A stretch of 64,000 nt of DNA from Gemmatimonadota bacterium (GTDB lineage: Bacteria > Gemmatimonadota > Gemmatimonadetes > Gemmatimonadales > GWC2-71-9): assembly GCA_040388535.1 (NCBI GenBank), contig JAZKBR010000002.1, positions 774,838 through 838,837 of the forward strand. The letters are read 5' to 3'. The notes below the pieces were generated by a model that saw only the letters and a program-made list of their open reading frames with translations, searched no databases and had not been told where the DNA came from. This document shows positions 2,898 to 52,058 of this stretch, in pieces. The first letter of the stretch is position 1. Every line of letters begins with the position of its first letter. The position numbers and the translations under genes are program-made.

Positions 2898-3401
2898 TTA
2901 CTCCCCGATCATCGGCTCGATCATCTCCCGTTCGCGCGGCGCGATGTGCGGTGAATCATTGAGGAGCCGGGCGCAGCTGTTCCAGCGCAGAATGGCGTCG
3001 TCGTCGTCGACCGGGCGGATCGCTTCGGCTCGCTCGTAGAGCGCCATCGCCTCGGTCAGCCATTCGTGCGCGTTCTGGCTCGCTCCCGGGGTGCGCTTTT
3101 CCAGTTGCGCCCGGGCGCGGCGTTCGCAGATGATCCCGCCGTAGTAGGCGCGCTCATACTCGCCAGTAAAGTGCGAGAGGGTCTCCCGCGCCCGGCTTGC
3201 CGCCCCTGCCGATTCCGACCCGAACTGATCGGTGCGCGCGAGCAGCAGGACCTGCAACGCCTTCTGGTTGCCGGGGTCGGTGTTGAGAATGTCGAGGCAG
3301 ATGCTCTCGGCCGCCCACGGCTGGTTGAGCAGCCGATACCGTTCGGCCTTGTCGAGCGCCAGCGGAATCGCGGCAGCGGAAAGCAGTTTCAGTGCGAGCA
3401 T
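2898..3401 (-). CDS. Hypothetical helical (TPR-like) protein
   Basis: 167-aa ORF, 28 nt downstream of sdhB on the same strand. Helical repeat-like composition (ERAYYGGIICERRARAQLE, EWLTEAMALYERAEAIRP). No catalytic motif recognised. Confidence 0.55.
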   Translation of the reverse strand: MLALKLLSAAAIPLALDKAERYRLLNQPWAAESICLDILNTDPGNQKALQVLLLARTDQFGSESAGAASRARETLSHFTGEYERAYYGGIICERRARAQLEKRTPGASQNAHEWLTEAMALYERAEAIRPVDDDDAILRWNSCARLLNDSPHIAPREREMIEPMIGE

Positions 3402-5996: not shown

Positions 5997-6796
5997 CAGA
6001 AGAGCCTCCAGTCATGCCAGATACCCATCGAACAGAGGCGGATGTAGATGTCGGAGAAGGCAACCATCACCAGCGAGCACCACGCCCACTTCATATGAGC
6101 GCGGTTGAGGCAGCTCGAGCAGTCATAGAGTGTCTTCCGCACCGGGCGCTCGGAGAGGCGATCCATCAGGCCACCCACCGCATGGCGGAACGAATGGCAA
6201 CCGAGGGTGTAGCCGCCCAGCAGCACGAGATTCGTGGCGAGGATGAGGGTCCCGACTCCGACGCCGAATTCCCGGGTGCCCGCGGCGTTGACGAACCAGA
6301 ACGCCTCGTACAGATCCTTCGCCAGGAAAAGCAGGAAGGGGATGGCGATGAAGAGAAAGAAGCGATGCAGGTTCTGGAGGATGAGCGGGAAGGAGTGCTC
6401 GCCCCAGTAGCTCTTGCGCGGTTCGCCCACGGCACAGTTGACCGGATCGGCCCAGAGTGCCTTGTAGTAGGCGCCGCGATAGTAGTAACAGGTGAAACGG
6501 AAGCCGCCTGGCGCCCAGAGAATCAGCAGCGCCGGCGAGAACTTCATCCATCCCGGCCACCATCCCGGCTTCGGTCCGAAGAGCGCGTGAGGCGACGCTC
6601 CGAAGATTTCAGGCGAATAGAATGGCGAGATGTAGGAGCCGAAGTAGTAATGGTCGCCCTGAAAGGCAGACCAGGTGGCGTAGACGATGAAGGACGAAAG
6701 GATCAGGAAAGTGATCAGTGGCTGAATCCACCACGCGTCCGTCCGCATAGTTTCGCCGAATCGGCGAGGAGCGAGAGGAAGCGGCGCGTGAGCCAT
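5996..6796 (-). CDS. sdhC: Single large membrane-anchor subunit of SDH (mycobacterial Sdh1 / Rv0249c-like type)
   Basis: 266 aa with multiple hydrophobic helices. Stop/start coupled to sdhA (5996); gene order C-A-B. Cys/His cluster GCHSFRH ... DCSSC near the C-terminus. Confidence 0.6.
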   Translation of the reverse strand: MAHAPLPLAPRRFGETMRTDAWWIQPLITFLILSSFIVYATWSAFQGDHYYFGSYISPFYSPEIFGASPHALFGPKPGWWPGWMKFSPALLILWAPGGFRFTCYYYRGAYYKALWADPVNCAVGEPRKSYWGEHSFPLILQNLHRFFLFIAIPFLLFLAKDLYEAFWFVNAAGTREFGVGVGTLILATNLVLLGGYTLGCHSFRHAVGGLMDRLSERPVRKTLYDCSSCLNRAHMKWAWCSLVMVAFSDIYIRLCSMGIWHDWRLF

Positions 6797-13526: not shown

Positions 13527-14869
13527 CAGAAGTCGAAGTCACCTCCGATCGCTGGTTCAGCGAGTGGCGCGGGCGTGAGCTGTCACGCGTGGATGCGGCC
13601 GGGCTCACCTATCTCGACTATGGCGGCGCGGCGCTGCACCCGGCGTCGCTCCTCCGCGATGACCTCGCCCGGCTCGATCGCACGGTGCTCGGCAATCCCC
13701 ATTCGCAGCATGCCGCCTCACGCGGTGCCACGCATGATCTCGACGCTGCGCGCGAGGCAATCCTTGCCTTCCTCAACGCCGATCCGGACGAATACGCCGT
13801 GGTCCTGGTGGCGAATGCGTCGGCGGCGTGCCGCGTGGTGGGCGAAGCGTACCCGTTCGACGCAGCGACACCGCTGCTACTCACGGCCGACAACCACAAT
13901 TCGGTCAACGGTATTCGCGAGTTCGCGACCGGGCGTGGTGCCCTGGTTACCACCATTCCACTCGATGATGAATTGCAGTTGCTGGATCCGGTAGAGGTAC
14001 TGGCGCAGTCTAGCGGAGGGTATGGTGGCCTCCTCGGCTTTCCCGCGCAGTCGAACTTCTCGGGCGTGAGGCACTCCCTCGAACTCATCGACGTGGCACA
14101 CCAGCTCGGCTATCGCGTGCTGCTCGATGCAGCCGCCTATCTGCCGACGATGTCACTCGATCTCTCGGCGGTTCGCCCCGACTTTGTGGTGCTCTCGATC
14201 TACAAGATTGCCGGTTACCCGGCGGGGCTTGGCGCGCTGGTGGCCCGTCGTGACGCTCTTGCTGCGTTGCAGCGCCCCTGGTTCGCTGGCGGCACAGTGG
14301 AGTGGGCATCCGTGCAGAGCGGCGTGCACCGGTTGCGCCACGGCGCCGAAGGCTTCGAGGATGGGACGCCGCCGTTTCTCGCGGCCGGGGCGGTGCCGCC
14401 GGCACTTGCGATGGTACGTGGGCTGCAACCGCGGCTGCGCCGTCAGCTCGCCTCGCTCACCACCAGTATGCTCGACGGTCTCGGCGCACTGCGGCACGAG
14501 AATGACGCACCGCGGGTGTCAATCCACGGCCCGCGCAGTTGCGCCGACCGCGGCGCCACGGTGGCGTTTACCCTGCTTGAGGCCACCGGCGACGTGGTGC
14601 CGTTCTGGGAAGTGGAAGCGAAGGCATCCGACGCGGGCCTGGCGCTGCGTGGCGGCTGCTTCTGCAATCCTGGATGTGCCGAGCGGGCGCTCGACTTTCC
14701 GACCGATGCCGCATCCCGCTTCGCGGCGATCGGGCCGGCCTTCGATTATCCCCACGCGGCCGCAGCGCTCGGTCGGCGCGCCGTCGGGGCGTTGCGCGCC
14801 TCGCTCGGCCTCGGCAGCGTGCAGCGCGATGTGGACCGGCTGATGGAGTTTCTGCGGAACTACGGGTGA
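13520..14869 (+). CDS. Aminotransferase class V-fold PLP enzyme, MOCOS/NifS-like (putative cysteine desulfurase/sulfurase)
   Basis: 449 aa. GTG start overlaps the upstream gene by 7 nt. YLDYGGAAL, GNPHSQH, and the PLP-lysine context VVLSIYKIAGYPAGLGALVARRD, which resembles the N-terminal domain of molybdenum cofactor sulfurase. Confidence 0.75.
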   Translation: MLTEVEVTSDRWFSEWRGRELSRVDAAGLTYLDYGGAALHPASLLRDDLARLDRTVLGNPHSQHAASRGATHDLDAAREAILAFLNADPDEYAVVLVANASAACRVVGEAYPFDAATPLLLTADNHNSVNGIREFATGRGALVTTIPLDDELQLLDPVEVLAQSSGGYGGLLGFPAQSNFSGVRHSLELIDVAHQLGYRVLLDAAAYLPTMSLDLSAVRPDFVVLSIYKIAGYPAGLGALVARRDALAALQRPWFAGGTVEWASVQSGVHRLRHGAEGFEDGTPPFLAAGAVPPALAMVRGLQPRLRRQLASLTTSMLDGLGALRHENDAPRVSIHGPRSCADRGATVAFTLLEATGDVVPFWEVEAKASDAGLALRGGCFCNPGCAERALDFPTDAASRFAAIGPAFDYPHAAAALGRRAVGALRASLGLGSVQRDVDRLMEFLRNYG

Positions 14870-14937
14870 TGGGTGATGGGTGACGGGTCGGAGTGTCATC
14901 CTGCACTCCCCATCACCCGTGACCCATCACCCGTCCC
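14864..14937. repeat. (GGGTGAT)n heptamer array and its inverted complement forming a hairpin between convergent genes
   Basis: Left arm 14864-14891: gggtgat gggtgat gggtgac gggtcgg. Centre: ggagtgtcatcctgcactcc. Right arm 14912-14939: atcaccc gtgaccc atcaccc gtccccc. The TGA stop of the PLP gene (14867-14869) lies inside the array. Confidence 0.8.
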
Positions 14938-22931: not shown

Positions 22932-22940
22932 TGCAGGAGG

Positions 22941-22969
22941 GGTGATGGGTGATGGGTGATGGATGATGG
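22941..22969. repeat. (GGTGATG)4 heptamer tandem array
   Basis: ggtgatg ggtgatg ggtgatg gatgatg, starting 10 nt after the flotillin stop (TGA 22929-22931). Same unit as at 14864. Confidence 0.85.
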
Positions 22970-22973
22970 AGTT

Positions 22974-23138
22974 GTCACCCTGAGCAACGCGAGGGGGCGG
23001 AGCACCGTTTTTGTGACGGCGCTCCGCCCCCTCACTTCGTTCAGGGTGACAGCAATTCAGGAGAGCTCCGCCCCCTCACTTCGTTCAGGGTGACAGCGCG
23101 GGCGCCGGACTCCGCCCCCTCGCTTTGCTCAGGGCGAC
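22974..23138. repeat. Four copies of a 30-nt REP-like unit (1 forward, 3 reverse); the first pair forms a hairpin
   Basis: 22974-23003 gtcaccctgagcaacgcgagggggcggagc. 23021-23050 and 23065-23094 both read gctccgccccctcacttcgttcagggtgac (identical). 23110-23138 ctccgccccctcgctttgctcagggcgac. Lies between convergent genes. Confidence 0.85.
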
Positions 23139-36223: not shown

Positions 36224-36337
36224 CTCTCTTCCCCCGTCCGGGCGGGCCGGTGGGTGGGTGGTCTCTGTTGGAATGGGGCTCCGTACGAGGGGAATGTTCC
36301 AGAGGTTGCAAAGTGCGACAAAGCCGAAAAGCGAGAA

Positions 36338-36388
36338 GGGGGAAGGGGGAAGGGGGGAAGGGAGGAGGGGAAGGGGGCAGGGGGCAGG
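36338..36388 (+). repeat. Polypurine tract with seven G3-6 runs (G-quadruplex-capable) in the divergent lipoprotein/thiC control region
   Basis: gggggaagggggaaggggggaagggaggaggggaagggggcagggggcagg, read directly. Lies ~27 nt upstream of the TPP riboswitch and 115 nt upstream of the lipoprotein ATG on the other strand. Confidence 0.85.
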
Positions 36389-36414
36389 CGGCGAGGCTAC
36401 CCCGTATCTTTTCG

Positions 36415-38212
<1,798 letters not shown>

Positions 38213-41076: not shown

Positions 41077-42834
41077 GTGGTTCGTCGCCTCGCGCCATTC
41101 GCCTGCCTCTGCCTCCTCGCGATGCCGCTCGCCGCCCAGTCGCGCGATGCCAGCGTTCCCGACCTGGTTGCACTGATGGCACAGCCCAAGAGCGAGATCG
41201 CCCAGGTGCTCGACCGCTGGCAGAGTGACCGCGGCGCGCTGAGCCGGCGCTACACGACCGAATATTCCACGGTGAGGCGTGAGCGGTTCCGGAGCTTCAA
41301 CACCACCTGGCGCGCCCAACTCAAGGCGCTGCCCTTCGAGAAGCTGTCGCGACCCGCGCAGGTGGACTACCTGCTGCTCGACAACAAGCTCCGTTACGAA
41401 CTCGGCCTCCTCGACCGCGAGGCAAAGCTGGCCGGTGAGATGACGGCACTGTTGCCCTTCGCGGACACCCTCGCGGCACTGCTCGAGGCACGCCGGACCC
41501 TGCAGCGCCCCGATCCGGCCACTACGGCGCGAACCATCGCATGGATGACGAGCCAGATCGACAAGACGAGCAAGGGCCTCGGCAACACCGATGGCGTGCC
41601 GACCGGCGTCAAGGCGACGAAGATCGTGGCCTACCGCGCCGCCGATGCGATCGCCGGATACAAGCGGCAGTTCGCGGCCTGGCTCCGCTTCTATCAGGGC
41701 TATGACGCGCAGATCACCTGGTGGATCGCCGATCCCGCGAAGAAGTTCGACGCGGCGCTCGACAGCTATCGCAAGGCACTGCGTGAGAAGGTTGTGGGCG
41801 CCAGGGAAGGACAGGATGAACCGATCGTCGGCGACCCGATCGGCGCCGACGGACTCGCGGTGGACCTCGCGGGCGAGATGATTCCCTACACTCCGGCCGA
41901 ACTGATCGCCATCGCCGAAAAGGAGTATGCCTTTCTCGAAACCGAGGCGAAGCGCGCCGCGCGAGAGATGGGTTTTGGTGATGACTGGAAGGCCGCACTC
42001 GAGAAGGTGAAGACCGAGTATCCACCCGTCGGCGAGCAGGTCACTGCCGTGCGTGACATGGCCTGGGAGGCCACCCGATACGTCGAAGAGCACAACCTCG
42101 TCACCGTACCGGCGCTCGCCAAGGAAGTCTGGCGGATGGAGATGATGACGCCGGAGGCGCAGAAAACCAATCCGTTCTTCCTCGGCGGCGAAGTGATCCA
42201 GGTCTCATCACCGACTGATGCGATGAGTGAAGAGGAGAAGGTGCAGGCGCTGCGCGCGAACAATGCGCCGATGTCCCGCGCCACCGTGCAGCACGAGCTG
42301 ATCCCCGGACATCACCTGCAAGGGTTCATGGCCGATCGCAACAACACCCAGCGCGGCATCTTCGACACTCCATTCTATGTGGAAGGGTGGTCGCTCTGGT
42401 GGGAACTCCATCTCTGGGACCTCGGCTTCCACTCCACCCCCGACCAGCGCATGGGGGCACTCTTCTGGCGGATGCATCGCGCGGCGCGGATCATCTTTTC
42501 CCTCAAGTTCCACCTCGGCGAGTGGACGCCGCAGCAGTGCATCGACTTCCTCGTCGACAAGGTGGGCCACGAGCGCGCCTCAGCCACTGGCGAGGTGCGA
42601 CGCTCCTTCAACGGCAACTATTCGCCGCTTTACCAGGCGGGCTACCTGCTTGGCGGGATGCAGCTGCGGTCGCTCTATGGCGATGTGGTGAAGGGGAAGA
42701 AGATGACCGAACGGCAGTTCCACGACGCGGTTCTCGCGACCGGACCGATGCCGATCGAGATGGTGCGCGCACTGCTGAAGCCCGAGGTCCCGCTCAAGCG
42801 CGACTACGTGGCGAACTGGCGCTTTTCGGACTAG
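41077..42834 (+). CDS. DUF885 family protein (putative secreted metallopeptidase-like)
   Basis: ORF 40984..42834 trimmed to GTG 41077 (VVRRLAPFACLCLLAMPLAAQ signal). HELIPGHHLQ motif characteristic of DUF885. Confidence 0.8.
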   Translation: MVRRLAPFACLCLLAMPLAAQSRDASVPDLVALMAQPKSEIAQVLDRWQSDRGALSRRYTTEYSTVRRERFRSFNTTWRAQLKALPFEKLSRPAQVDYLLLDNKLRYELGLLDREAKLAGEMTALLPFADTLAALLEARRTLQRPDPATTARTIAWMTSQIDKTSKGLGNTDGVPTGVKATKIVAYRAADAIAGYKRQFAAWLRFYQGYDAQITWWIADPAKKFDAALDSYRKALREKVVGAREGQDEPIVGDPIGADGLAVDLAGEMIPYTPAELIAIAEKEYAFLETEAKRAAREMGFGDDWKAALEKVKTEYPPVGEQVTAVRDMAWEATRYVEEHNLVTVPALAKEVWRMEMMTPEAQKTNPFFLGGEVIQVSSPTDAMSEEEKVQALRANNAPMSRATVQHELIPGHHLQGFMADRNNTQRGIFDTPFYVEGWSLWWELHLWDLGFHSTPDQRMGALFWRMHRAARIIFSLKFHLGEWTPQQCIDFLVDKVGHERASATGEVRRSFNGNYSPLYQAGYLLGGMQLRSLYGDVVKGKKMTERQFHDAVLATGPMPIEMVRALLKPEVPLKRDYVANWRFSD

Positions 42835-42858
42835 CGCGATCTCCCCGGCGAGTGGTGA

Positions 42859-42876
42859 TGCCGCGCTCGCGCGGCA
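42859..42876 (+). terminator. Short GC stem-loop after the DUF885 gene (no U-tract)
   Basis: tgccgcg-ctcg-cgcggca: a 7-bp stem, 25 nt after the stop. Confidence 0.3.
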
Positions 42877-42925
42877 CCGATCCTCGAGACGCCGGACGCC
42901 CCGAGCAACACCGCTGACTCCGTCC

Positions 42926-43076
42926 GGATTCGCCGGCGTTGCTCGTGGGCTGCCTCTCCGCAGCCCAACGGAGTCCCGACGGCGGTTCGAGCTGGCGACA
43001 TTAGAGCTGGTGCGCGGCGCCTCCGAGTCTGCTACGAGGCACCCACGACTCAACGCCTGCGAATCCCCTTCTCCAG
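42926..43076. repeat. 151-bp palindromic (MITE-like) element, copy R, inverted relative to copy L
   Basis: Termini ggattcgccggcgttgctcgtgggctgcctc (42926-42956) and gaggcacccacgactcaacgcctgcgaatcc (43046-43076). The reverse complement of the right terminus matches the left terminus of copy L at 30/31 positions. Central ~90 nt are unrelated to copy L. Confidence 0.75.
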
Positions 43077-43083
43077 TCTCTAG

Positions 43084-43118
43084 TCTCTAGTCTCTAGTCT
43101 CTGCTCTGTCGATCTGAC
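43084..43118. repeat. (GTCTCTA)n heptamer array, single arm, upstream of hsp20
   Basis: cag tctcta gtctcta gtctcta gtctctg ctctg: three perfect units plus degenerate units. Abuts copy R of the palindromic element. Confidence 0.85.
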
Positions 43119-43181
43119 ACCGCCTCTGTCGCAATGACTGGCCGGCGTCGATGCAATCTGCCGACGTTGGCAGGCCCAGGC

Positions 43182-43196
43182 TGGCACGCCCGATGC
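43182..43196 (+). promoter_or_regulatory. Possible sigma-54 (-24/-12) promoter upstream of hsp20
   Basis: TGGCAC-gcccg-ATGC versus consensus TGGCAC-N5-TTGC (one mismatch), ~80 nt upstream of the hsp20 ATG. Confidence 0.25.
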
Positions 43197-43276
43197 CCCT
43201 CTCCTGGTCGTCGGCGGGGAACAGCTTCCGCCGCACTGTCCCAACCAGCGCCCCGCAAGGGGAGGAGCTTGCAGCC

Positions 43277-43660
43277 ATGATGTCCCGCCATCAGATGCCC
43301 CGTTTTGCCGGCCGTAACGGCTTCGCCCTTGAGCCGTCGATTGATCGTTTCATCGCCCGCGCCTTCGATGTGCCGGTGTGGAGTGGCGGTGCCGACGTGC
43401 AGGAACTCGCCGATCAGGCAGTGATCACTCTCGATGTGCCTGGTGTGAAGCCGGAGCAGCTCAAGGTCTCGGCCGAGAATCGGACGATCACCGTGAACGT
43501 CGAGCGCGAAGGGCGCGGCAACTTCACTCGCCAGTACACCATCGGCAGCAAGTACGATCTTGCCGGCCTGAATGCGAAGCTCGAGCTGGGCGTGCTCACG
43601 CTGACGCTCCCGGTTGCCACTGAGGCGATGTCGCGGGAAGTGCCTGTTACCGTCGCGTAG
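43277..43660 (+). CDS. Small heat-shock protein, Hsp20/alpha-crystallin family
   Basis: ORF 43151..43660 trimmed to ATG 43277 (GGAGGA 10 nt upstream). ITLDVPGVKPEQLKVSAENRTITVNVERE ... AKLELGVLTLTLP. Confidence 0.88.
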   Translation: MMSRHQMPRFAGRNGFALEPSIDRFIARAFDVPVWSGGADVQELADQAVITLDVPGVKPEQLKVSAENRTITVNVEREGRGNFTRQYTIGSKYDLAGLNAKLELGVLTLTLPVATEAMSREVPVTVA

Positions 43661-43673
43661 CGACCAAGTACTG

Positions 43674-43794
43674 GAGACTAGAGACTAGAGGCTAGAGACT
43701 AGAGACGGCAGTCCGGGCAGTCGGTCCGCAATAGAGCTTCCGGATGACCCCCTCTAGTCTCTAGTCTCTAGTCTCTAGTCTCTAGTCTCCTCTC
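43674..43794. repeat. Inverted heptamer arrays (GAGACTA)4.7 - 46-nt spacer - (TCTAGTC)5 forming a long hairpin after hsp20
   Basis: 43674-43706 gagacta gagacta gaggcta gagacta gagac. 43753-43787 tctagtc x5, then tcctctc. The arms are reverse complements. Confidence 0.9.
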
Positions 43795-43834
43795 AGGGGC
43801 TGGCGTTCCGCCTCGTCCGGTAGCATCCTCACGG

Positions 43835-46600
43835 ATGCCCAAGACCCCCGCCGCCCTTGTTGCCGCACTACTCCTGCTCACCAGCTGTTCGCCTTCGTCC
43901 GCTCCCGCGAACCACCCTGTTCCCGTCGCGCGAGATCAAGCCCTGGTGCTGATCTCGCTCGACGGCTTTCGCGCGGATTACCTCGACCGACCGGTCGCGA
44001 GGAATCTCCAGGCACTGGCGCGCGGAGGCGTGCGCGCGGAGTGGATGACGCCGTCGTTCCCGAGCAAGACCTTCCCGAATCACTACTCCATCGTCACCGG
44101 CCTCTATCCGGAGCACCACGGCATCGTTGCGAACAACATCCGCGATCCGTTGCTTGGCTCATTCACCATGGCCGATTCGATGGCCGTGCGCGACGGTCGC
44201 TGGTGGGGTGGCGAGCCGATCTGGGTCACGGCCGAGAAGCAGGGGAAGCGTGCGGCCAATTTCTTCTGGCCCGGTTCCGAAGCCGAGATTGGTGGCGTTC
44301 GCGCGACGATCTACAAGCGCTTCGAGGACACCTTTCCGAATGCGGCCCGTGTCGATTCGGTGCTGACCTGGCTGTCGCGGCCCAAGGGGCAGGCGCCATC
44401 GCTGGTGACGCTCTACTTCAGTGATGTCGACCACGCCGGGCACACCTTCGGCCCCGGCGCACCGGAGACTGACGCCGCGATCGCCCGGGTGGACTCGATG
44501 ATCGGCCGCCTGATGACCGGTCTCGCGGCGCGTGGCCAGCTCGACCGCGTCAACGTGATCGTGGTGGCGGACCACGGCATGCAGTCGACGCCGAAGAACC
44601 AGCTCATCGCGCTCGACGACTACATCTCGCTCGATGACGTCGACGTGATCGACTGGACTCCGGTGGGCGCGATTGCGCCGAAGCCCGGCAAGCTTGAAGC
44701 AGTGTACGCGAAGCTGAAGGGAGCGAACCCGCACCTGCAGGTCTACCGCAAGGGAGAAGTCCCGGCACGATTCCACTTCAATGACAACCCGCGAATCACG
44801 CCGCTGGTGCTGATTGCCGATGAGGGGTGGAGTATCACGCGTCGCGGAAAGGTCGACGCCTGGTCGGCCGCGAGTGCGTCGCACGGCTGGGACAACACCC
44901 TCCCGTCAATGCGAGCCCTCTTCGTGGCAGCCGGGCCGGCCTTCCGGCGCGGCTATGTGGCCCACTCCTTCCAGAACATCCACGTCTACGCCCTGATGTG
45001 CGCCATCCTCGGCCTGAAGCCAGCCGCAAACGACGGCTCGCTCGACTCGACCCGCGCGATGTTGCGCTCGGAGACGGGCGACGCGGCCGAGGCGAGCGCC
45101 GCGCGGATGATGCATCAGATCGAGATCCTCGCCTCGGATTCGTTCGAGGGTCGCGGCCCCGGCACTCGCGGCGACACGCTCACCGTGCGCCACATCAGTG
45201 AGGAGTTTCGCAAACTCGGCCTCCGGCCGATGGGGGCGAACGGCTCGTTTCTGCAGCCGGTAGAGATGGTGCGGATCAAGGGGGGCGGCACCTTCGCGCT
45301 GCAACGTGACGGGGTGATGCTGGACTCGGGAAACCAGGTGGTGCTGGCTCCAGGCGTTGACAGCGCTCGCAGTGTCAGCGGGGAGATGGTTTTCGTCGGT
45401 TACGGCATCGCGACGCTGGATCATCGCTGGGACGATTACAAGAATGTTGACGTGCGCGGCAAGATCGTCGTCCAGCTCGCAGGCCTGCCGAGTGGTCCGG
45501 AGTGGGATGCGTTGTCGGTCAACATCCCGACGAGCCTGAAGGCGGAAGCGGCGATGGATCGCGGCGCGGCAGGAATCGTCGTGGTGACTTCGGACCTCGC
45601 GGTACGCGCCAATCAGTCGGCCCGCCCGGTTACCGGACTCGCGCGTGATGCAGCTGCGCCGCCGGTGGCGACAACCCTGCTGGTGGGCCCCGAAGCGGGA
45701 GCACGCCTGCTCTCGCCGGCTGGCGCCCTTGAGGCGCTCCGTGCGACGGCTCGAAGCAAGTCGTTCTCTCCGGTCGCCGTTCCGGGTCGTCTCTCGATTC
45801 ACTACGCGCCAACTGTAATGCGCTTCACCACGCACAACGTTGTGGCGCTGGTGGCGGGCACCGACCCGGCCGCCCGAGACGAGTACGTCATCGTCTCGGC
45901 GCATCACGATCATCTCGGCCGTGACACCACGCTCAAGGGTGATCAGATCTTCAACGGTGCGCTCGACAATGCCGGCGGCATTGCGCAGTTGCTCGAGATG
46001 GCGCGTGCGGCGGCCGCCAGCCCGGCTCGGCGCTCGGTGCTCTTCGTGGCAACGGCCGTCGAAGAACTCGGGCTCCTCGGTGCCGAATGGTATGTGCGCC
46101 ATCCGGCGGTGCCGCTGGCGAAGACGGCCGGCGTCATTAACCTCGATTTCATGACGCCCTGGGGACGGACTCGCGATGTGATCTCGATCGGCGACGGGAT
46201 GAGTACGCTCGATACCCTGGTCCGCAACGCGGCGGCGGCGCAGGGGCGGGTGATGACGCGCGACCCGTATCCGGAACAGAATTTCTATGTGCGCTCCGAT
46301 CATTATGCCTTCGCGAAGGCCGGCATCCCCGGGCTCTTCGTGGGTTCGGGGATGGACTATGTCGGCAGGCCCGCAGGGTGGGGAAAGCAGCGCAGCGACG
46401 CCTACCTCGCGCGCGAGTATCACCGCGTGAACGATGATGTGCGCGCCGACTGGGACCTCAGTGGCGCGGTGGAAGATGCCGCGATGCTCTCCGACGTGGT
46501 GCGTCGGCTCGCCAATGACAGCGCCTGGCCCAGCTGGACATCACGCCCCGCCACCGCCAACTATCAGCGTGCCCTGAAGCGCCTCCGCGGTACTCTGTAG
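43835..46600 (+). CDS. Fusion protein: ectonucleotide pyrophosphatase/phosphodiesterase (NPP, alkaline-phosphatase superfamily) + PA-domain M28 peptidase
   Basis: 921 aa, single frame. Lipobox LLLLTSCS. NPP part: LISLDGFRADYL, FPSKTFPNHYSIVTGLYPEHHGI, DHAGHTFGP, ADHGM, HGWDN. After ~aa 410, M28 part: ILASDSFEGRGPGTRG, VIVSAHHDHLG, NGALDNAGGIAQLLEMA, VLFVATAVEELGLLGAEWY. Confidence 0.85.
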   Translation: MPKTPAALVAALLLLTSCSPSSAPANHPVPVARDQALVLISLDGFRADYLDRPVARNLQALARGGVRAEWMTPSFPSKTFPNHYSIVTGLYPEHHGIVANNIRDPLLGSFTMADSMAVRDGRWWGGEPIWVTAEKQGKRAANFFWPGSEAEIGGVRATIYKRFEDTFPNAARVDSVLTWLSRPKGQAPSLVTLYFSDVDHAGHTFGPGAPETDAAIARVDSMIGRLMTGLAARGQLDRVNVIVVADHGMQSTPKNQLIALDDYISLDDVDVIDWTPVGAIAPKPGKLEAVYAKLKGANPHLQVYRKGEVPARFHFNDNPRITPLVLIADEGWSITRRGKVDAWSAASASHGWDNTLPSMRALFVAAGPAFRRGYVAHSFQNIHVYALMCAILGLKPAANDGSLDSTRAMLRSETGDAAEASAARMMHQIEILASDSFEGRGPGTRGDTLTVRHISEEFRKLGLRPMGANGSFLQPVEMVRIKGGGTFALQRDGVMLDSGNQVVLAPGVDSARSVSGEMVFVGYGIATLDHRWDDYKNVDVRGKIVVQLAGLPSGPEWDALSVNIPTSLKAEAAMDRGAAGIVVVTSDLAVRANQSARPVTGLARDAAAPPVATTLLVGPEAGARLLSPAGALEALRATARSKSFSPVAVPGRLSIHYAPTVMRFTTHNVVALVAGTDPAARDEYVIVSAHHDHLGRDTTLKGDQIFNGALDNAGGIAQLLEMARAAAASPARRSVLFVATAVEELGLLGAEWYVRHPAVPLAKTAGVINLDFMTPWGRTRDVISIGDGMSTLDTLVRNAAAAQGRVMTRDPYPEQNFYVRSDHYAFAKAGIPGLFVGSGMDYVGRPAGWGKQRSDAYLAREYHRVNDDVRADWDLSGAVEDAAMLSDVVRRLANDSAWPSWTSRPATANYQRALKRLRGTL

Positions 46601-46624
46601 CTCTCCTCTCCCCCGAGGCAGCAC

Positions 46625-47737
46625 ATGCGTCATCTGTGGCTCCCACTGGTAGTCATCGCGGTTCCGGTTGCAGCGCAAACCCCGGCGAAATGGCGGCTGG
46701 TGCCGGAAGTGACGTACGGTGCTGCCGATGAGTCGGCTGGGGAGCTCTCGGATGTGCGGGGGATCGAGGTCGCCAAGAACGGCAATGTGCTGGTGCTCGA
46801 CTACAAGGCGCAGGCGGTGAAGCTGTTTGCACCCGATGGCAAGTTCATCAGGAACATTGGCCGGGGCGGCGGCGGACCAGCGGAGTACGAGACCCCTAAT
46901 GGTTTTACGCGCGCCCCCGACGGTACCATCTGGATCAACGACCCGGGAAACAACCGCGTGACTATTCTTCGCGAAGATGGCACGCTGGTCAAGACAATGC
47001 CGCGCGACGTCCATACCTACGGTTTCATCTGGGATGGCAAGTTCGATCGTCAGGGTCGGCTGATGCAGGGCGTCTCCGCCCCCCCGCCGCGAGGTTATCG
47101 CCTTCAGCGAACGAACTACCTGACGGGGCAGGCCGACAGCCTGGTCCCTCGCGGATGTGTGCCGCCCGAGGTGGTCGCAGACACGAGGCCTTCCTCGTAC
47201 AGCTTCCGCAGCAAAACTGGCGGAGGGACCACCATGGGGATCCCGTTCACGCCGGACATGATGAAGGTGGTCCATCCGGCAGGATACATCTGGTGCGCCT
47301 ACGGATCGACCTACACGGTATACCGGATTGGACTGGAGAAGGGCGATACCCTTGGAGTCATTCGCGGAGAGGCGCCGGCGCTTCCGATCCCAGCCAGTGT
47401 ACGCGATGCGGCCATCGCCAACATCAAGGAGATCGCCTCGAAGTACGGCGAGCCGAATTACTCGCCGGCCGGGATACCCACCAGCTATCCGCGCCTCCAC
47501 GAACTGCAGATCGACGATCGCGACAGGATCTGGGTTGGCCTCACTCCCGTTGGCACACCGGAAGCGCGATACGATGTCTACAGCGCCGATGGAAAGCTGG
47601 TGGCGAAGGCTTCGATTCCCTCGAGGCTCAAGGGGTATCTCTCCTTTGTGTTCCGTGGCGACAAGCTCTATGCGCTCGCCCAGGATGCCGATGATGTGCC
47701 ATTGGTCATGCGCTTTCGCATCGAGGTCGTGAAATGA
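46625..47737 (+). CDS. Secreted 6-bladed beta-propeller (NHL/TolB-like) protein, paralog 1
   Basis: 370 aa. Signal MRHLWLPLVVIAVPVAAQ. Motif FIRNIGRGGGGPAEYETP (G.GPGE-type). Repeated D/N-G blade segments. Confidence 0.7.
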   Translation: MRHLWLPLVVIAVPVAAQTPAKWRLVPEVTYGAADESAGELSDVRGIEVAKNGNVLVLDYKAQAVKLFAPDGKFIRNIGRGGGGPAEYETPNGFTRAPDGTIWINDPGNNRVTILREDGTLVKTMPRDVHTYGFIWDGKFDRQGRLMQGVSAPPPRGYRLQRTNYLTGQADSLVPRGCVPPEVVADTRPSSYSFRSKTGGGTTMGIPFTPDMMKVVHPAGYIWCAYGSTYTVYRIGLEKGDTLGVIRGEAPALPIPASVRDAAIANIKEIASKYGEPNYSPAGIPTSYPRLHELQIDDRDRIWVGLTPVGTPEARYDVYSADGKLVAKASIPSRLKGYLSFVFRGDKLYALAQDADDVPLVMRFRIEVVK

Positions 47738-49083
47738 CACCACTCTCCCGCCGCACCTTCGTCGCCACGGCCGGCCTCGCCGTGCCGGCGCTGCAGCGCA
47801 TTCGCCCCGCGATCGCGGTTGCCGGTAGCGACGACCGGATGGCCTGGTGGCGCGAGGCACGCTTCGGGCTCTTTCTGCACTGGGGCCTCTATTCGATTCT
47901 CGCCGGAAAGTGGAAGGACGACGGGCGGTGGGCCGAATGGATCCGCAACAATGCCCAGATTCCGGTCAAGGAATACGACGAACTCCTGAAGCAGTGGAAC
48001 CCCACCGCGTTCGATCCCGACGAATGGGCCTCGCTCGCCAAGCGCGCGGGAATGAAATACGCCGTGCTCACCACCAAGCATCACGACGGCTTCTGCCTCT
48101 GGGACTCCCCGCTCGGCGATTTCGATGTGATGGCGACGCCGAGCCAGCGGGATATCTGTCGCGATCTGGCGAAGGCGCTCCGCAAGCGAGACATCCGGGT
48201 GGGATGGTATCACTCGATCATGGACTGGCATCACCACGATTACCTGCCGCGCCGCGACTGGGAACTCGCCACGCGGCCGGTGGGTGATGCGCGTTTTGAC
48301 CGCTACGTGACCTACCTGCACACCCAGGTCGACGAACTGCTCAGCAACTATGGCCCGATCGACATCCTCTGGTTCGATGGCCAGTGGGAAGCGACCTGGA
48401 CTCACAAGCTCGCCCTCGCGCTCGAGGCGCAGATCCGCGAGAAGGCGCCGAAGCTCCTGATCAACAACCGGATTGACGGCAGCGGCGCGCCGAAGGGGAG
48501 TGAACTCGGCGACTTCGGCACCCCGGAGCAAAAGATTCCGGCGACCGGCATCCCTGGCGAAGACTGGGAATCGTGCATCACGATGAACGACAACTGGGGC
48601 TACAAGGCGAGCGACCAGAACTGGAAGACGCCGCGCAAGCTCGTCGAGATCCTGGTGGAGACCGCGTCGAAGGGCGGCAATCTGCTGCTGAATGTTGGCC
48701 CGATGGGTGATGGCCGTTTTCCACCGGAGGCCGTCACCCGGATGGAGGCGATCGGCGCCTGGATGCGAGTCCACGGCAAGGCGATCTACGGCACCACGGC
48801 GTCACGCTTCGCCGACCCGAAGGGATTTCTCTCGACCACCGCCGGCGAGCGGCAGCTGCACCTCTTCGTGCTCGACTGGAAGCCGGGGCCGCTGGCGTTG
48901 CCGGGGTTGCAGAGCCGTCCGGAGAAGGCGCTCCTTCTCGGCGCGAAGGACATTCCCTTGCCGGTAGCGGTCGCCAACGGAGTGATGTCGGTGATGCTCC
49001 CCGAGGTCGCGCCCGATTCGCTGCTGCCGGTGATCACGCTTCGGTTCGAGGAGCCGATCCGGTTCGAGGCGGCGGCGAAGTAA
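47734..49083 (+). CDS. Alpha-L-fucosidase (GH29), Tat-exported
   Basis: 449 aa. Tat signal SRRTFVATAGLAVPAL; RFGLFLHWGLYS, AGMKYAVLTTKHHDGFCLWDS, WFDGQWE, NVGP. ATG overlaps the upstream stop. Confidence 0.9.
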   Translation: MTPLSRRTFVATAGLAVPALQRIRPAIAVAGSDDRMAWWREARFGLFLHWGLYSILAGKWKDDGRWAEWIRNNAQIPVKEYDELLKQWNPTAFDPDEWASLAKRAGMKYAVLTTKHHDGFCLWDSPLGDFDVMATPSQRDICRDLAKALRKRDIRVGWYHSIMDWHHHDYLPRRDWELATRPVGDARFDRYVTYLHTQVDELLSNYGPIDILWFDGQWEATWTHKLALALEAQIREKAPKLLINNRIDGSGAPKGSELGDFGTPEQKIPATGIPGEDWESCITMNDNWGYKASDQNWKTPRKLVEILVETASKGGNLLLNVGPMGDGRFPPEAVTRMEAIGAWMRVHGKAIYGTTASRFADPKGFLSTTAGERQLHLFVLDWKPGPLALPGLQSRPEKALLLGAKDIPLPVAVANGVMSVMLPEVAPDSLLPVITLRFEEPIRFEAAAK

Positions 49084-49137
49084 GCTTTGCTCCGCGCGGC
49101 GCGTTCTGTGGGGTCCCCCGCTCAGTCGAGGTCATTG

Positions 49138-50211
49138 ATGAAGGGTCGCACCCTGATTGCCGTGCTGATCGTGGCTGCCGTTCCCATGTCAGTGCATGGG
49201 CAGGCCCCTCCTCGTTGGCCAGTGATGGCCACGCCGGTGACCAGTATTGGTGACGCCAGCGATGACGAGCGGCAAGAGCTCCTTCGCGTAGGTGGCGCGA
49301 GACGCCTTTCCGATGGTCGAGTGCTGGTTTCCAATGGCAAACCGCACGAACTGCGGGTCTACAACGCTCAGGGGAAGTTTCTCTCCCGGATCGGACGGAG
49401 CGGCGGTGGACCGGGTGAGTTCCAGGGGCGCATCGACATCCTCTCGGTGCGGGGCGACACGGTGGTGCTCTTCGATCAGGGCAGCATGCGCTGGTCCGAA
49501 TTTCTGGTCAGTGGCAAGCTGCTGCAGGAATCGAAGGCCGGGCCGGGCACGGCGCCGGCACAGGTCGCCCTCTATCGCCGGACGCTGGTTCGCGACCTGC
49601 CGAATGCCCTCAATCACTGCGCGGTCGAGCTGCTCGATGCGCTTGTGGCCGTGCCGCCGCCAGCATTGCGAGAAGCCTTGCCCGATGGCGCAGGTCGATT
49701 CTGGGTGCGGCTCGATACCTCGCCGGTCTGGTCCGTCTACTCGCCCGCCGGGCGGCCGGTGGCATCCGTTCAGCTTCCTGCGGGCCTGGAACTCTTTCAG
49801 GTCACCGACGGCTTTGTCGTTGGCCGCCTCAAGGACCGCGACGATGTCGAGCGCGTTGTGGTCCTTCGGGTGAACTCGCCCCGCGCCGTTGGCAGCAGGG
49901 CGCGGTGCGAGGGAGTGAAGGACACGCTCCCCGCTGCCACCGGGCCCCGACTCGCCGAGCTCAAGGGCGTGATGCGAAGCGCGATGACGGCTGCTGAGAT
50001 GGCCTACTCCGACGTCGGCCACTACGTCTCGACTGCCGATTCGCTGCAGCTGAAGCTTCCAGCCGATGTCAGATTCAGGATTCTCCGGTCGACCGCGGCG
50101 GGGTGGGCGGCCGTCGTTTTCGACCTTCGCTCGACGCTGGCATGCACCTTTGGTATTGGTGACGCGGCCCCGCTGGGCTGGCCGGAAGGGATGCTGCGCT
50201 GCGGCCCCTGA
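49138..50211 (+). CDS. Secreted 6-bladed beta-propeller protein, paralog 2
   Basis: ORF 49087..50211 trimmed to ATG 49138 (MKGRTLIAVLIVAAVPMSVHGQ). FLSRIGRSGGGPGEFQG motif. Confidence 0.7.
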   Translation: MKGRTLIAVLIVAAVPMSVHGQAPPRWPVMATPVTSIGDASDDERQELLRVGGARRLSDGRVLVSNGKPHELRVYNAQGKFLSRIGRSGGGPGEFQGRIDILSVRGDTVVLFDQGSMRWSEFLVSGKLLQESKAGPGTAPAQVALYRRTLVRDLPNALNHCAVELLDALVAVPPPALREALPDGAGRFWVRLDTSPVWSVYSPAGRPVASVQLPAGLELFQVTDGFVVGRLKDRDDVERVVVLRVNSPRAVGSRARCEGVKDTLPAATGPRLAELKGVMRSAMTAAEMAYSDVGHYVSTADSLQLKLPADVRFRILRSTAAGWAAVVFDLRSTLACTFGIGDAAPLGWPEGMLRCGP

Positions 50212-50313
50212 CCCCGCGCGTCACGGAACCGGCAATCTGACCGGTGGGGTGTGCAAAGAACGGGCGCTCGCCCGTCCCGTCAGCCACACTCACCCCAGGT
50301 TGCGGAGTACCCG

Positions 50314-50889
50314 ATGGCTACCAATCGCAAGAAAGTTCCTGCCGGCAAGAAGGCCCCGGCCCGGCGTACCGCGTCCGCCGAAGCGGCGACGCCACTGCTC
50401 TATCCCACCAAGAACGACCTGCCGTCGGCCACGCGCTCGGAGGTCGTCGCCCTCCTCAACCAGCGTCTCGCCGAATGCATCGAGTTGCAGACGCAATGCA
50501 AGCAGGCCCACTGGAATGTGAAGGGGCGCGACTTCATCGCCCTGCACAAGCTCTTCGATGAGATCAACGAGTCAGTTGAGGAATACATCGACGAAATCGC
50601 CGAACGGATCGTGCAGCTCGGCGGGATCGCCGAAGGCACGGTGCGGATCGTGGCCGCGCGTTCGGACCTGATTGATTACCCGTTGGTACTCACCTCCGGG
50701 GACGAGCACGCCGCGGCGCTTTCCGATTCGCTTTCGTCGTTCGCTCGCTCGACGCGCATGGGGATCGAGGAGATGGACGACCTCCACGACGCCGTGAGCC
50801 AGGACATGCTCACCGAGATTACCCGCGGGACCGACCAATGGCTCTGGTTCGTGGAATCACACCTCGTGGACCGCGGCCCCAAGGGGTGA
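50314..50889 (+). CDS. dps: Dps (DNA-binding ferritin-like protein) with Lys/Ala-rich N-terminal tail
   Basis: ORF 50251..50889 trimmed to ATG 50314 (MATNRKKVPAGKKAPARR). Ferroxidase-site context QAHWNVKGRDFIALHKLFDE ... DEIAERI. Confidence 0.9.
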   Translation: MATNRKKVPAGKKAPARRTASAEAATPLLYPTKNDLPSATRSEVVALLNQRLAECIELQTQCKQAHWNVKGRDFIALHKLFDEINESVEEYIDEIAERIVQLGGIAEGTVRIVAARSDLIDYPLVLTSGDEHAAALSDSLSSFARSTRMGIEEMDDLHDAVSQDMLTEITRGTDQWLWFVESHLVDRGPKG

Positions 50890-50928
50890 TACCTTAGGGA
50901 GTCTGCCGCCTCGACCCGGGAGTGTGCC

Positions 50929-51306
50929 ATGCGTGTCGCCGCGCTTCTCCTCGCTGCTCTTGTCGCACCGCTCCCACTGCTCGCGCAGTATCCGGAGCCA
51001 GGGACCTATTCGGCGGGCGCTACGCCCGCCGGATCGTCCCAGATCATTCCGCTCAAACTCATCGTGGAAAAGCGGGGCGACTCGACCCTGGTGCATATGT
51101 CGCAGCCCGGCGACAAGGGCGACAACCAGCTGCCAATGGTCGATCAGCGTGCCTACAAGTCCGGGTTCGAGATCGTCCTCGGCGTCGTCGATGGCGGGCT
51201 CGCCTGCCGGTTTGCTCCCCCCAACAAGGACGGACGATGGGAGGCGAACTGCGAGGACCCGGACCATACCGCGCTCTACCAGTTCTTTTTCAAGAAGGGC
51301 TCCTGA
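50929..51306 (+). CDS. Small secreted hypothetical protein
   Basis: 125 aa. Signal MRVAALLLAALVAPLPLLAQ. No motif recognised. Confidence 0.45.
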   Translation: MRVAALLLAALVAPLPLLAQYPEPGTYSAGATPAGSSQIIPLKLIVEKRGDSTLVHMSQPGDKGDNQLPMVDQRAYKSGFEIVLGVVDGGLACRFAPPNKDGRWEANCEDPDHTALYQFFFKKGS

Positions 51307-51906
51307 GTGGGCGCGCCGGCGCGGCACCGGATTCGATTCGGTGATGGCGATGTGCTGCAATTCCGGATCGAACTCGATGGCATCCTGCCCGTCGTCTGGC
51401 GACGGGTGGCTGTCTCGGGTCGCGCTTCGCTGCAGGAGCTGCACGGGGTAATCCAGCGGGCGATGGGGCGCGCGGCCGACGGCGCCTATGCCTTCGACGT
51501 CGACGGCGTCCGGTATCACGATCCGATGGACGATCCGCAGCCCGGACACGAAGCCGACGAGATCTCGCTCGAAATGCTCGAGCTGCACCCTGGCGCGGTC
51601 GCCTTTCACATCGCCGAACATCACGGCGAACCGTGGCACGACCGGATCATTCTCGAACTGGTCTCCCCGCGGATGGTCGGGCAGCGCCTGCCGACCTGCC
51701 TCGCCGGCGGACGTGCCGCTCCACCAGATGATTGCGATGGCGCCACCGAGTATCGCGAGATGCTCGCCTCGCTCGCCGAGCCGCTCGACCCGAGATCGGC
51801 CGAGCTGCGCTCCTGGCTGCCCGAGGAATTCGATCCGGAGTACGTCGACCTGATTGCCATCAACGCGTCGCTCGCGAGGACGCCGAAACACCGCCCTGCT
51901 GCGTGA
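51307..51906 (+). CDS. pRiA4b ORF-3-like (PRiA4_ORF3 family) protein
   Basis: 199 aa. GTG start directly after the upstream stop. LQFRIELDGILPVVWRRVAVSGRASLQELHGVIQRAMG matches the family's N-terminal signature (..PPIWRR..VP....L.DLH..IQ.AMGW). Confidence 0.6.
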   Translation: MGAPARHRIRFGDGDVLQFRIELDGILPVVWRRVAVSGRASLQELHGVIQRAMGRAADGAYAFDVDGVRYHDPMDDPQPGHEADEISLEMLELHPGAVAFHIAEHHGEPWHDRIILELVSPRMVGQRLPTCLAGGRAAPPDDCDGATEYREMLASLAEPLDPRSAELRSWLPEEFDPEYVDLIAINASLARTPKHRPAA

Positions 51907-51911
51907 AGCGC

Positions 51912-52058
51912 AGAGACTTGAGATGAGAGACTAGCGACTAGAGACTAGAGACTAGAGACTAGAGACTAGAGACTAGAGGGTGTGTTGCCGGTATATTTTT
52001 CCACTTGGCTGCGACACCACTGTTCTCTAGTCTCTAGTCTCTCATCTCTAGTCTCTCT
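51912..52058. repeat. Inverted heptamer arrays: (TAGAGAC)~9 - 45-nt spacer - (TCTCTAG)5, asymmetric arms
   Basis: 51912-51978 agagacttgagatgagagac tagcgac (tagagac)x5 tagag. 52024-52058 tctctag tctctag tctctca tctctag tctctct. The variant unit gagatga is mirrored in both arms. Ends 11 nt before the amidohydrolase ATG (52070). Confidence 0.9.

Follow-up and report, generated by a model that had tools for sequence, protein, structure and literature searches.

Inverted heptanucleotide arrays beside an hsp20 gene of Gemmatimonadota as probable members of a lineage-typical class of simple-sequence repeats

Among the repeats described in bacterial genomes, the closest to those reported here include the GGGAATC-type heptanucleotide arrays of Xanthomonas (X. 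campestris / X. axonopodis), 186 and 183 of which were found in two genomes (Rehm et al., 2015; PMC4692102). They are typically composed of about four units, with a range of 2-26, 89-93% of them are intergenic, and each genome carries 70-75 convergent inverted pairs; their mean distance is 28 nucleotides (nt) from the end of the upstream open reading frame (ORF) and 160 nt from the next one (PMC4692102). Moreover, they are under-represented between divergent genes, the neighboring genes belong to all functional classes, array length and sequence differ between related species, and a role in gene regulation was not identified (PMC4692102). Here we describe arrays built on the unit GAGACTA, which surround an hsp20 gene in a 64,000-nt stretch of a metagenome-assembled genome (MAG) of the phylum Gemmatimonadota (contig JAZKBR010000002.1, positions 774,838 to 838,837; this whole stretch is hereafter the window), and we compare them with the Xanthomonas arrays and with other known systems.

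On a wider scale, papers citing the work of Mrázek, Guo & Shah (2007) present period 7 as the dominant class of long simple-sequence repeats (SSRs), with heptanucleotide SSRs enriched in large, high-GC, non-pathogen genomes and mostly located in non-coding DNA, and they relate that slippage tied to the footprint of the polymerase had been suggested as an explanation (PMC4679880, PMC4692102). As portrayed in these citing papers, that work is a statistical survey, and their accounts of it mention neither an inverted-pair architecture nor the abutment of stop codons. A further family, the TAACTGA heptamers of Beggiatoaceae, cyanobacteria and Bacteroidetes, is scattered across phyla (MacGregor, 2015; PMC4679880); these repeats are mostly direct and lie just 5′ of start codons, with one inverted case in 170 sets (PMC4679880).

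The arrays around hsp20 are, in our judgement, probably local members of a population of genome-wide, lineage-typical heptanucleotide SSRs, and not a device of the hsp20 gene, whose bracketing is incidental and which is a bystander. (GAGACTA)n is one recurrent unit of the heptamer-array class. A literature search found no paper containing the 14-mer (GAGACTA)2 and none linking heptamer repeats to Gemmatimonadetes; in the searchable literature, the phenomenon known from Xanthomonas and cyanobacteria is apparently documented here for the first time in Gemmatimonadota.

As in Xanthomonas, the 7-nt tandem arrays belong to a high-GC non-cyanobacterial genome and form convergent inverted pairs near the 3′ end of the upstream ORF. 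Since this architecture had already been published (PMC4692102), the novelty that the original prediction, made from the letters of the window, had claimed for such a genome does not hold. The two systems differ in that GAGACTA is AT-rich, contains CTAG, has no G-tract and forms no G-quadruplex, as well as in the phylum concerned; the G3-tract type of Xanthomonas is resembled in the window only by a GGGTGAT pair at 14864-14932. With the SSRs of the 2007 survey, the arrays of the window and of its lineage share the tandem 7-nt build, the excess of period 7 and the predominantly non-coding location. The analogy drawn at the outset with the short tandemly repeated repetitive (STRR) sequences of cyanobacteria is also borne out, since these and the TAACTGA repeats likewise constitute genome-specific heptamer families with many intergenic sites in scattered phyla. 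Unlike the TAACTGA repeats, the arrays of the window lie directly 3′ of stop codons and are often inverted. They are not STRR sequences in the strict sense, the host being a Gemmatimonadota MAG and not a heterocystous cyanobacterium (Calothrix/Nostoc), and GAGACTA presumably differs from the STRR units.

The three predicted arrays around hsp20 were recovered with Tandem Repeats Finder (TRF) and by direct reading of the sequence (Table 1). The predicted coordinates of the downstream arms were exact (43674-43706, 13 nt past the stop, and 43753-43787, with five perfect units, separated by a 46-nt spacer), while those of the upstream arm, whose three gtctcta units followed by gtctctg do exist, were about 10 nt too high (43076-43103, not 43086-43113). 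The hsp20 stop codon is a TAG (43658-43660). The downstream arms are reverse complements, with 97% complementarity over 34 nt, and give a stem some 35 bp long. For 43655-43810, folding as RNA reaches -90.4 kcal/mol (z score -8.0) and folding as DNA -41.5 kcal/mol (z -6.0). The sole variant of the pair, A to G at 43691, still pairs, as G-U in the sense transcript. The upstream array, 236 nt 3′ of the stop codon of a DUF885 gene and 165 nt 5′ of the hsp20 start, has the polarity of the distal arm and shows, as expected from the original prediction, complementarity to the proximal arm (91% over 35 nt); no partner of its own was found for it, and the fold of 42940-43130 has a z score of only -1.6.

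Each GAGACTA array consists of at least three head-to-tail 7-nt units, with TRF copy numbers of 4.7-9.6 and matches of 84-100%, and the two-unit pattern, with at most one mismatch, occurs 17 times in the window compared with 0 in 100 shuffles. The unit also has the peculiar composition that had been pointed out, i.e., a GC content of 43% against 66% for the window, a CTAG, and TAG in every frame of both strands. CTAG is avoided about 6.5-fold in the window (31 sites against some 201 expected from base composition), and 22 of these 31 sites fall within the 208 bp of the five GAGACTA arrays, a concentration which fits a young, fast-expanding sequence outside the usual compositional bias of the genome.

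Table 1. Arrays, intervening and adjoining features in the window (coordinates in nt; nt past stop, distance from the stop codon of the gene upstream).
Feature	Position	Strand	Basis and remarks
Third pair, other unit: (GGGTGAT)3.6 / loop 20-21 nt / (CCCATCA)3.4	14864-14888, 14909-14932	.	
Solo (GGGTGAT)4.3	22937-22970	+	6 nt past stop; abuts REP-like palindrome cluster (see text)
Solo (GAAGGGG)7.7, G-rich	36335-36388		TRF
Solo array (TCTCTAG)4.7	43070-43102	.	TRF and sequence; no own partner
hsp20, 130 aa, PF00011	43268-43660	+	Pfam, E 1.7e-11
Proximal arm (GAGACTA)5.3, one GAGGCTA variant unit	43670-43706	+	TRF and sequence; begins 10-13 nt past hsp20 stop
Unique 46-nt spacer with short inner stem TCCGG/CCGGA	43707-43752	+	Unrelated to spacer of second pair
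Distal arm (TAGTCTC)5.4, perfect, reverse complement of proximal arm	43752-43789	+	TRF and pairing analysis
Leader of phosphodiesterase/M28 gene, ~40 nt, conserved	43796-43834	+	By-eye alignment with L122, L123, L124 and L125
Second pair, proximal arm (AGAGACT)9.6	51912-51978	+	6 nt past PRiA4_ORF3 gene stop
Second pair, distal arm (TCTCTAG)4.7	52024-52056	+	13 nt before Amidohydro_3 start

That these arrays are assembly artefacts is hardly credible. Tandem repeats are prone to assembly error, and a short-read contig does break at both arrays; however, this contig, L001 of a Logan k-mer assembly (SRR26324622), is 100% identical to 43760-51965 of the window and has each of its ends inside an array, so a second assembler, which may have worked on the same reads, recovered the junctions between arrays and unique sequence, a support which covers these junctions and not the copy numbers. 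Furthermore, isolate genomes and numerous independent MAGs display the same architecture. As an observation apart, heptamer arrays fragment the k-mer assemblies of these genomes, as at the ends of L001; in practice, they break short-read assemblies and can be mis-annotated.

The recurrence of the unit 8 kb away, also foreseen, takes the form of a second inverted pair, which folds at -83 kcal/mol (z -6.8). The outer 33 nt of its proximal arm mirror the distal arm, including a unit with a 2-nt variation, GAGATGA, and the five inner units of the proximal arm are perfect and have no counterpart on the other side. Because the variant is mirrored in the outer register and the extra units are perfect, the sequence of the two arms indicates a probable event of inverted copying followed by one-sided expansion. 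A third pair, with another unit, escaped the original prediction, as did the solo arrays at 22937-22970 and 36335-36388. It occupies the entire gap, 76 nt long, that separates an aminotransferase gene from a convergent M28 peptidase gene; the TGA stop codon of the former lies inside the first unit, and the predicted free energy of the pair is -56.8 kcal/mol (z -6.4). The (GGGTGAT/C)n arm of this pair (14864-14888) contains four G3 tracts with 4-nt loops and thereby has the canonical G-quadruplex motif known from the GGGNATC units of Xanthomonas.

In the three inverted pairs of the window, 46, 45 and about 20 nt separate the arms, and the pairs start 10, 6 and -5 nt from a stop codon, which agrees with the gene-boundary location proposed in the original prediction. 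The special link with hsp20 that it suggested is not supported, the same architecture being found after the aminotransferase gene and after the PRiA4_ORF3-domain gene. Moreover, the genes adjoining arrays in the window (Hsp20, DUF885, class-V aminotransferase, M28 peptidase, PRiA4_ORF3, Amidohydro_3 and ThiC) are functionally unrelated. By period, the window holds nine arrays of period 7, two of period 4 and one of period 8, and the relatives L124, L125 and L220 show a similar excess of period 7. The two GAGACTA pairs have spacers with no relation to each other, and a structure such as that of the 46-nt spacer is not general: structured spacers were rejected as a rule of these pairs, since only 7 of 24 spacers had a z score below -2.

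The comparison with orthologous loci gives these arrays a history. In three relatives (L124, L125 and L126; 52-55% identity), hsp20 lies directly 5′ of the phosphodiesterase gene, with an array-free gap of 42-45 nt, and the window Hsp20 shares 66% identity with the Hsp20 encoded there in L124. The adjacency of the two genes is thus ancestral, and the arrays, with their spacer about 135 nt long and placed between the hsp20 stop codon and the conserved leader, are consequently a lineage-specific insertion. In the two closest relatives (L122 and L123; 75-77% phosphodiesterase identity), DUF885 is followed by the phosphodiesterase gene, hsp20 is absent, no remnant of GAGACTA was found at the junction, and there are essentially no heptamer arrays in 13-15 kb. 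On the other hand, L124, L125 and L220 have 7-13 heptamer arrays per 22.7 kb (0.3-0.6 per kb), many of them as inverted pairs abutting stop codons, and each of these array-rich relatives has its own preferred units. L220 was the sole full-length ortholog from a metagenome scan with phosphodiesterase alignment, the other matches being mostly single-domain relatives. Since the closest relatives are poor in arrays and more distant ones are rich, the array load looks burst-like and lineage-specific.

These orthologs also bear on the suggestion that the upstream array recombines with the proximal arm, inverting the 0.57-kb hsp20 segment, or with the distal arm, deleting it. The 35-nt inverted match with its 91% complementarity would offer a substrate, and the absence of hsp20 between DUF885 and the phosphodiesterase gene in L122 and L123 is what a deletion might leave. 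Nevertheless, the homology is short, the junctions of L122 and L123 carry no residual GAGACTA array, and no sign of inversion was found: the relatives that keep hsp20 (L124-L126) share its orientation, and there is no recombinase among the annotated neighboring genes. A look-up of the window Hsp20 protein, with two choices of start, for alternative junctions returned no record. We regard such a rearrangement as very improbable.

The gap between the PRiA4 and Amidohydro_3 genes is the most telling site. In the window it holds the GAGACTA inverted pair, in L124 a CCGAGGA inverted pair, in L220 a GCGAGAA inverted pair that starts 2 nt past the stop codon, in L125/L126 a single (GTGAAAG)n array that fills it, and in L123, where it measures 51 nt, a degenerate trace of period 7. 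The unit at this site has turned over completely, with five unrelated units in five lineages, while period 7 and position persist. The identity of the GAGACTA unit is incidental, as other genomes and sites use unrelated units. Elsewhere in L125, an array of 21 units (6389-6534) is composed of successive variant blocks, GAAGGGT, then GAACGGT, then GAAAGGT, which can be read as the visible trace of point mutation followed by local expansion.

The same preferences hold on a larger scale. In 0.92 Mb of contigs that were not chosen for repeats, 45 arrays have period 7, 14 have period 5 and 2 have period 8, and of the 51 arrays present in 214 kb of Gemmatimonadota DNA, 84% of which is coding, only 5 fall in coding sequence. 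In these 214 kb, half of the stop-to-array distances fall between -11 and +9 nt, and those measured to the following start codon are scattered. Neighboring arrays separated by 3-200 nt are inverted in 25 cases, direct in 7 and unrelated in 33, and 18 of the 25 inverted pairs begin with their purine-rich arm; the binomial probability is about 0.002 for inverted versus direct and, for the order of the arms, about 0.04, the pairs not all being independent. Therefore, the arrays are not peculiar to the window: they occur beyond it, and the inverted organization at gene boundaries recurs elsewhere, in line with the original prediction.

Regarding the unit itself, exact (GAGACTA)3 gave at least 120 matches in many phyla when one genome per bacterial species was searched; among the matches listed are Vibrionaceae (with many sites per genome), Flavobacteriia, Chloroflexota, Planctomycetota, Acidobacteriota, Gemmatimonadota and others, with solo arrays in the majority and inverted pairs in about a tenth. 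GAGACTA was absent among the 45 period-7 arrays of the unselected 0.92 Mb, and in viral contigs, a kind of DNA different from bacterial chromosomes, (GAGACTA)3 was found in 4, against 7 and 9 for two composition-matched shuffles. As the shuffles are at least as frequent there, GAGACTA was rejected as a special cross-phylum unit, and its recurrence in several phyla seems to reflect how common heptamer arrays are in general and not the spread of a shared element.

In turn, the properties that made the unit conspicuous do not extend to the class. Stop triplets in 75 other heptamer units (45 observed, 42.7 expected from composition) are as frequent as chance would have it, which led us to discard all-frame stops as a class feature and leaves without support the all-frame translation insulator that had been put forward as a rationale. 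Low GC was discarded as well, the units being only 4.6 points below the GC of their loci, with a standard deviation of 16. CTAG, low GC and all-frame stops are therefore traits of GAGACTA and not of heptamer arrays as such. All-against-all BLAST of the array flanks revealed no conserved non-array sequence between genomes, the matches being confined to orthologous Vibrionaceae loci and to the arrays themselves; with the spacers unrelated and no flank shared across genomes, a miniature inverted-repeat transposable element (MITE) or any other transposable unit with conserved flanks was rejected. At orthologous Vibrionaceae sites whose flanks are 96-98% identical, the arrays measure 102 and 26 nt, and it is only in this family that variation of array length at orthologous sites was observed; a second strain of the organism of the window was looked for and not found.

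In the Blastocatellia MAG BP_45, which belongs to another phylum than the window, two loci (L003, 6514-6627, and L069, 2031-2126) carry the GAGACTA/GAGGCTA family between co-directional genes, in the order stop codon, purine-rich arm, loop of about 20 nt and complementary arm. The arms of these pairs are unequal or have a mismatch in each unit, and a search for a G-U versus A-C logic in the mismatches gave no clear result, as the units are mixed.

How would such arrays arise? Slippage is the textbook mechanism for tandem repeats, and quasipalindrome correction is an established model. We infer slippage as the mechanism of expansion and intrastrand template switching as the source of the mirrored arms. 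Thus, a 7-nt unit would be amplified by replication slippage, seven being a strongly favored non-triplet period in bacteria, and the array would then be copied in inverted orientation across a small loop, through intrastrand template switching or quasipalindrome correction, a step that is partly seen and that would produce two mirrored arms, free to grow or shrink independently. The arrays would persist almost only in the small unconstrained zone located 3′ of stop codons and before the leader of the next gene, as their distribution shows, purifying selection in the rest of the gap being the presumed reason why they abut stop codons. This persistence would also be why ancestral gaps of 42-51 nt have become gaps of 163-174 nt in the window. 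Finally, a transcribed stem of about 35 bp might block read-through or 3′ exonucleases, in the manner of the palindromic repeats considered below, and any barrier effect would fall on whatever gene lies upstream.

Several points weigh against this reading. The same unit is reused at unlinked sites, GAGACTA at three here and GAAGCGA at four in L220, as GGGAATC is at 186 sites in Xanthomonas (PMC4692102). Local slippage alone fails to explain this reuse, which may involve some copying from site to site or a factor specific for the sequence. Nor would a symmetric hairpin model lead one to expect the orientation bias, with the purine-rich arm first by 18 to 7. L122 and L123, the two closest relatives, are nearly free of arrays, so the process is on in some lineages only. 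The control for unit specificity comes, as said, from viral DNA; and slippage in this genome, like any effect at the RNA level, is something that we infer. Taken by itself, the finding at hsp20 matters little. It is the comparative pattern, i.e., the turnover of units at one site across five lineages, the abutment of stop codons and the existence of array-free close relatives, that provides a handle on the wider problem of heptamer arrays.

The position of the inverted pairs raises the question of a function at the 3′ end of transcripts. Rho-independent terminators have a short GC-rich stem of 5-15 bp, a loop of 3-8 nt and a U-tract. The hsp20 pair resembles them as a stem-loop placed directly 3′ of a gene and differs from them by its stem of about 35 bp, its 46-nt loop and the lack of a U-tract, the tail past the distal arm being CCTCTCAGGGG. 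A canonical terminator, one of the roles initially envisaged, is thereby not supported; by consensus scan, 42700-44000 contains 0 terminator-like sites and no sigma-70-like promoter. The repetitive extragenic palindromic (REP) sequences and bacterial interspersed mosaic elements (BIMEs) of enterobacteria occupy many dispersed intergenic 3′ positions between co-directional or convergent genes, where they form stable stem-loops in transcripts and can protect the upstream mRNA; in REPs, some 35 nt of sequence are conserved, and mobilization is by REP-associated tyrosine transposases (RAYTs). The arrays share with them the dispersed intergenic 3′ location and, by prediction, the formation of stem-loops, but their arms are simple-sequence arrays of variable length that lack a conserved core. 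Against Rfam 15, the arrays gave only sub-threshold matches to generic miRNA hairpins (41.8 bits, with a gathering score of 90).

It is possible, though doubtful, that the inverted pairs are selected 3′-end elements, namely U-tract-independent terminators or mRNA-stabilizing stem-loops that set upstream against downstream expression, heptamer arrays being the way in which this lineage builds and tunes stems. The hairpins are very stable, they begin a few nt from stop codons, inverted neighbors exceed direct ones 3.6-fold, one intergenic site has kept a pair in three lineages despite full unit turnover, and the variant at 43691 retains G-U pairing. However, besides the missing U-tract, many arrays are solo, the arms are often unequal or mismatched in every unit, as in L003 and L069, and gaps of 42-51 nt suffice in relatives at the same sites. 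Strong hairpins are also missing at most other gene ends of the window, in a survey made with 100-nt windows, which truncate long pairs, and on a crude gene map, and no role in gene regulation was identified for the Xanthomonas repeats (PMC4692102).

The arrays could also be binding sites for a sequence-specific protein, be it iteron-like, nucleoid-associated or a cold-shock protein bound to single-stranded heptamers. The reuse of one unit at several sites would suit such a protein, and CspB can bind heptamer direct repeats, with one protein per heptamer (PMC4679880). Yet the units are wholly different at the same site in related genomes, several unrelated units coexist within one genome, and no functional class of genes is associated with them, all of which makes binding quite improbable as the basis of the arrays.

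The reuse of units and the orientation bias lead to the consideration of a more active origin. A REP-like palindromic element, GTCAYCCTGAGC..., was found at 22974-23138 of the window and at 3228-3366 and 17523-17654 of L124. The copy of the window has a single forward arm, after which the reverse arm is repeated three times in tandem with a length of 44 nt; it lies between convergent genes and is directly 3′ of the (GGGTGAT)4.3 array. In L124, each of the two copies, of about 130 nt, exactly fills the space between the two arms of an inverted heptamer pair, as a spacer that folds at -79 kcal/mol (z -8 to -9). Hence, all three copies seen in Gemmatimonadota DNA adjoin or separate heptamer arms. 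Furthermore, the unit GGGTGAY is the end of the arm of this element, and the spacer of the third pair (14889-14908) contains GTCATCCTG. The REP-like elements and the heptamer arrays may be linked; a literature search on the motif yielded no relevant paper.

From this angle, the arrays would have spread by active copy-and-paste or by end-addition instead of local slippage, candidates being a REP/RAYT-like system that acts on hairpins and a templated process that adds a genome-specific heptamer where palindromes are broken or extruded. The genome-specific families of units at unlinked sites, here and in Xanthomonas (PMC4692102), the bias of 18 to 7, the position of the three REP-like copies and the identity of GGGTGAY with the end of their arm are in favor of such a spread. 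We rate it as unlikely, given that no flank or core is conserved between copies, that the two GAGACTA pairs have unrelated spacers, that only three REP-like copies were seen, and that the annotated genes, which cover part of the window, include neither a transposase nor a reverse transcriptase. More speculatively, and with little confidence on our part, some active process acting on hairpins, possibly REP-linked or adding to palindrome ends, might propagate a preferred unit to sites after stop codons. If so, propagation linked to hairpins would explain the genome-specific units, the 3.6-fold excess of inverted pairs, the purine-arm-first bias and the burst-like presence in lineages, and the GAGACTA/GAGGCTA architecture common to Gemmatimonadota and Blastocatellia would mean shared or transferred machinery.

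Two features next to the arrays deserve mention. In the leader of the phosphodiesterase/M28 gene (43796-43837), a small hairpin, CATCC-loop-GGATG, has the start codon in its 3′ half. The same leader is present in L122 (2405-2452), L123 (420-462), L124 (9965-10003) and L125 (9965-10003), and in L125/L126 the hairpin takes a seemingly compensatory form, CATCTTC/GAAGATG; it could be a candidate element of translational control. Besides, the G-rich (GAAGGGG)7.7 array ends 25 nt 5′ of a thiamine pyrophosphate (TPP) riboswitch (36413-36516; 65.7 bits), which precedes thiC and which is the only Rfam match above the gathering score in the window, away from the inverted pairs.

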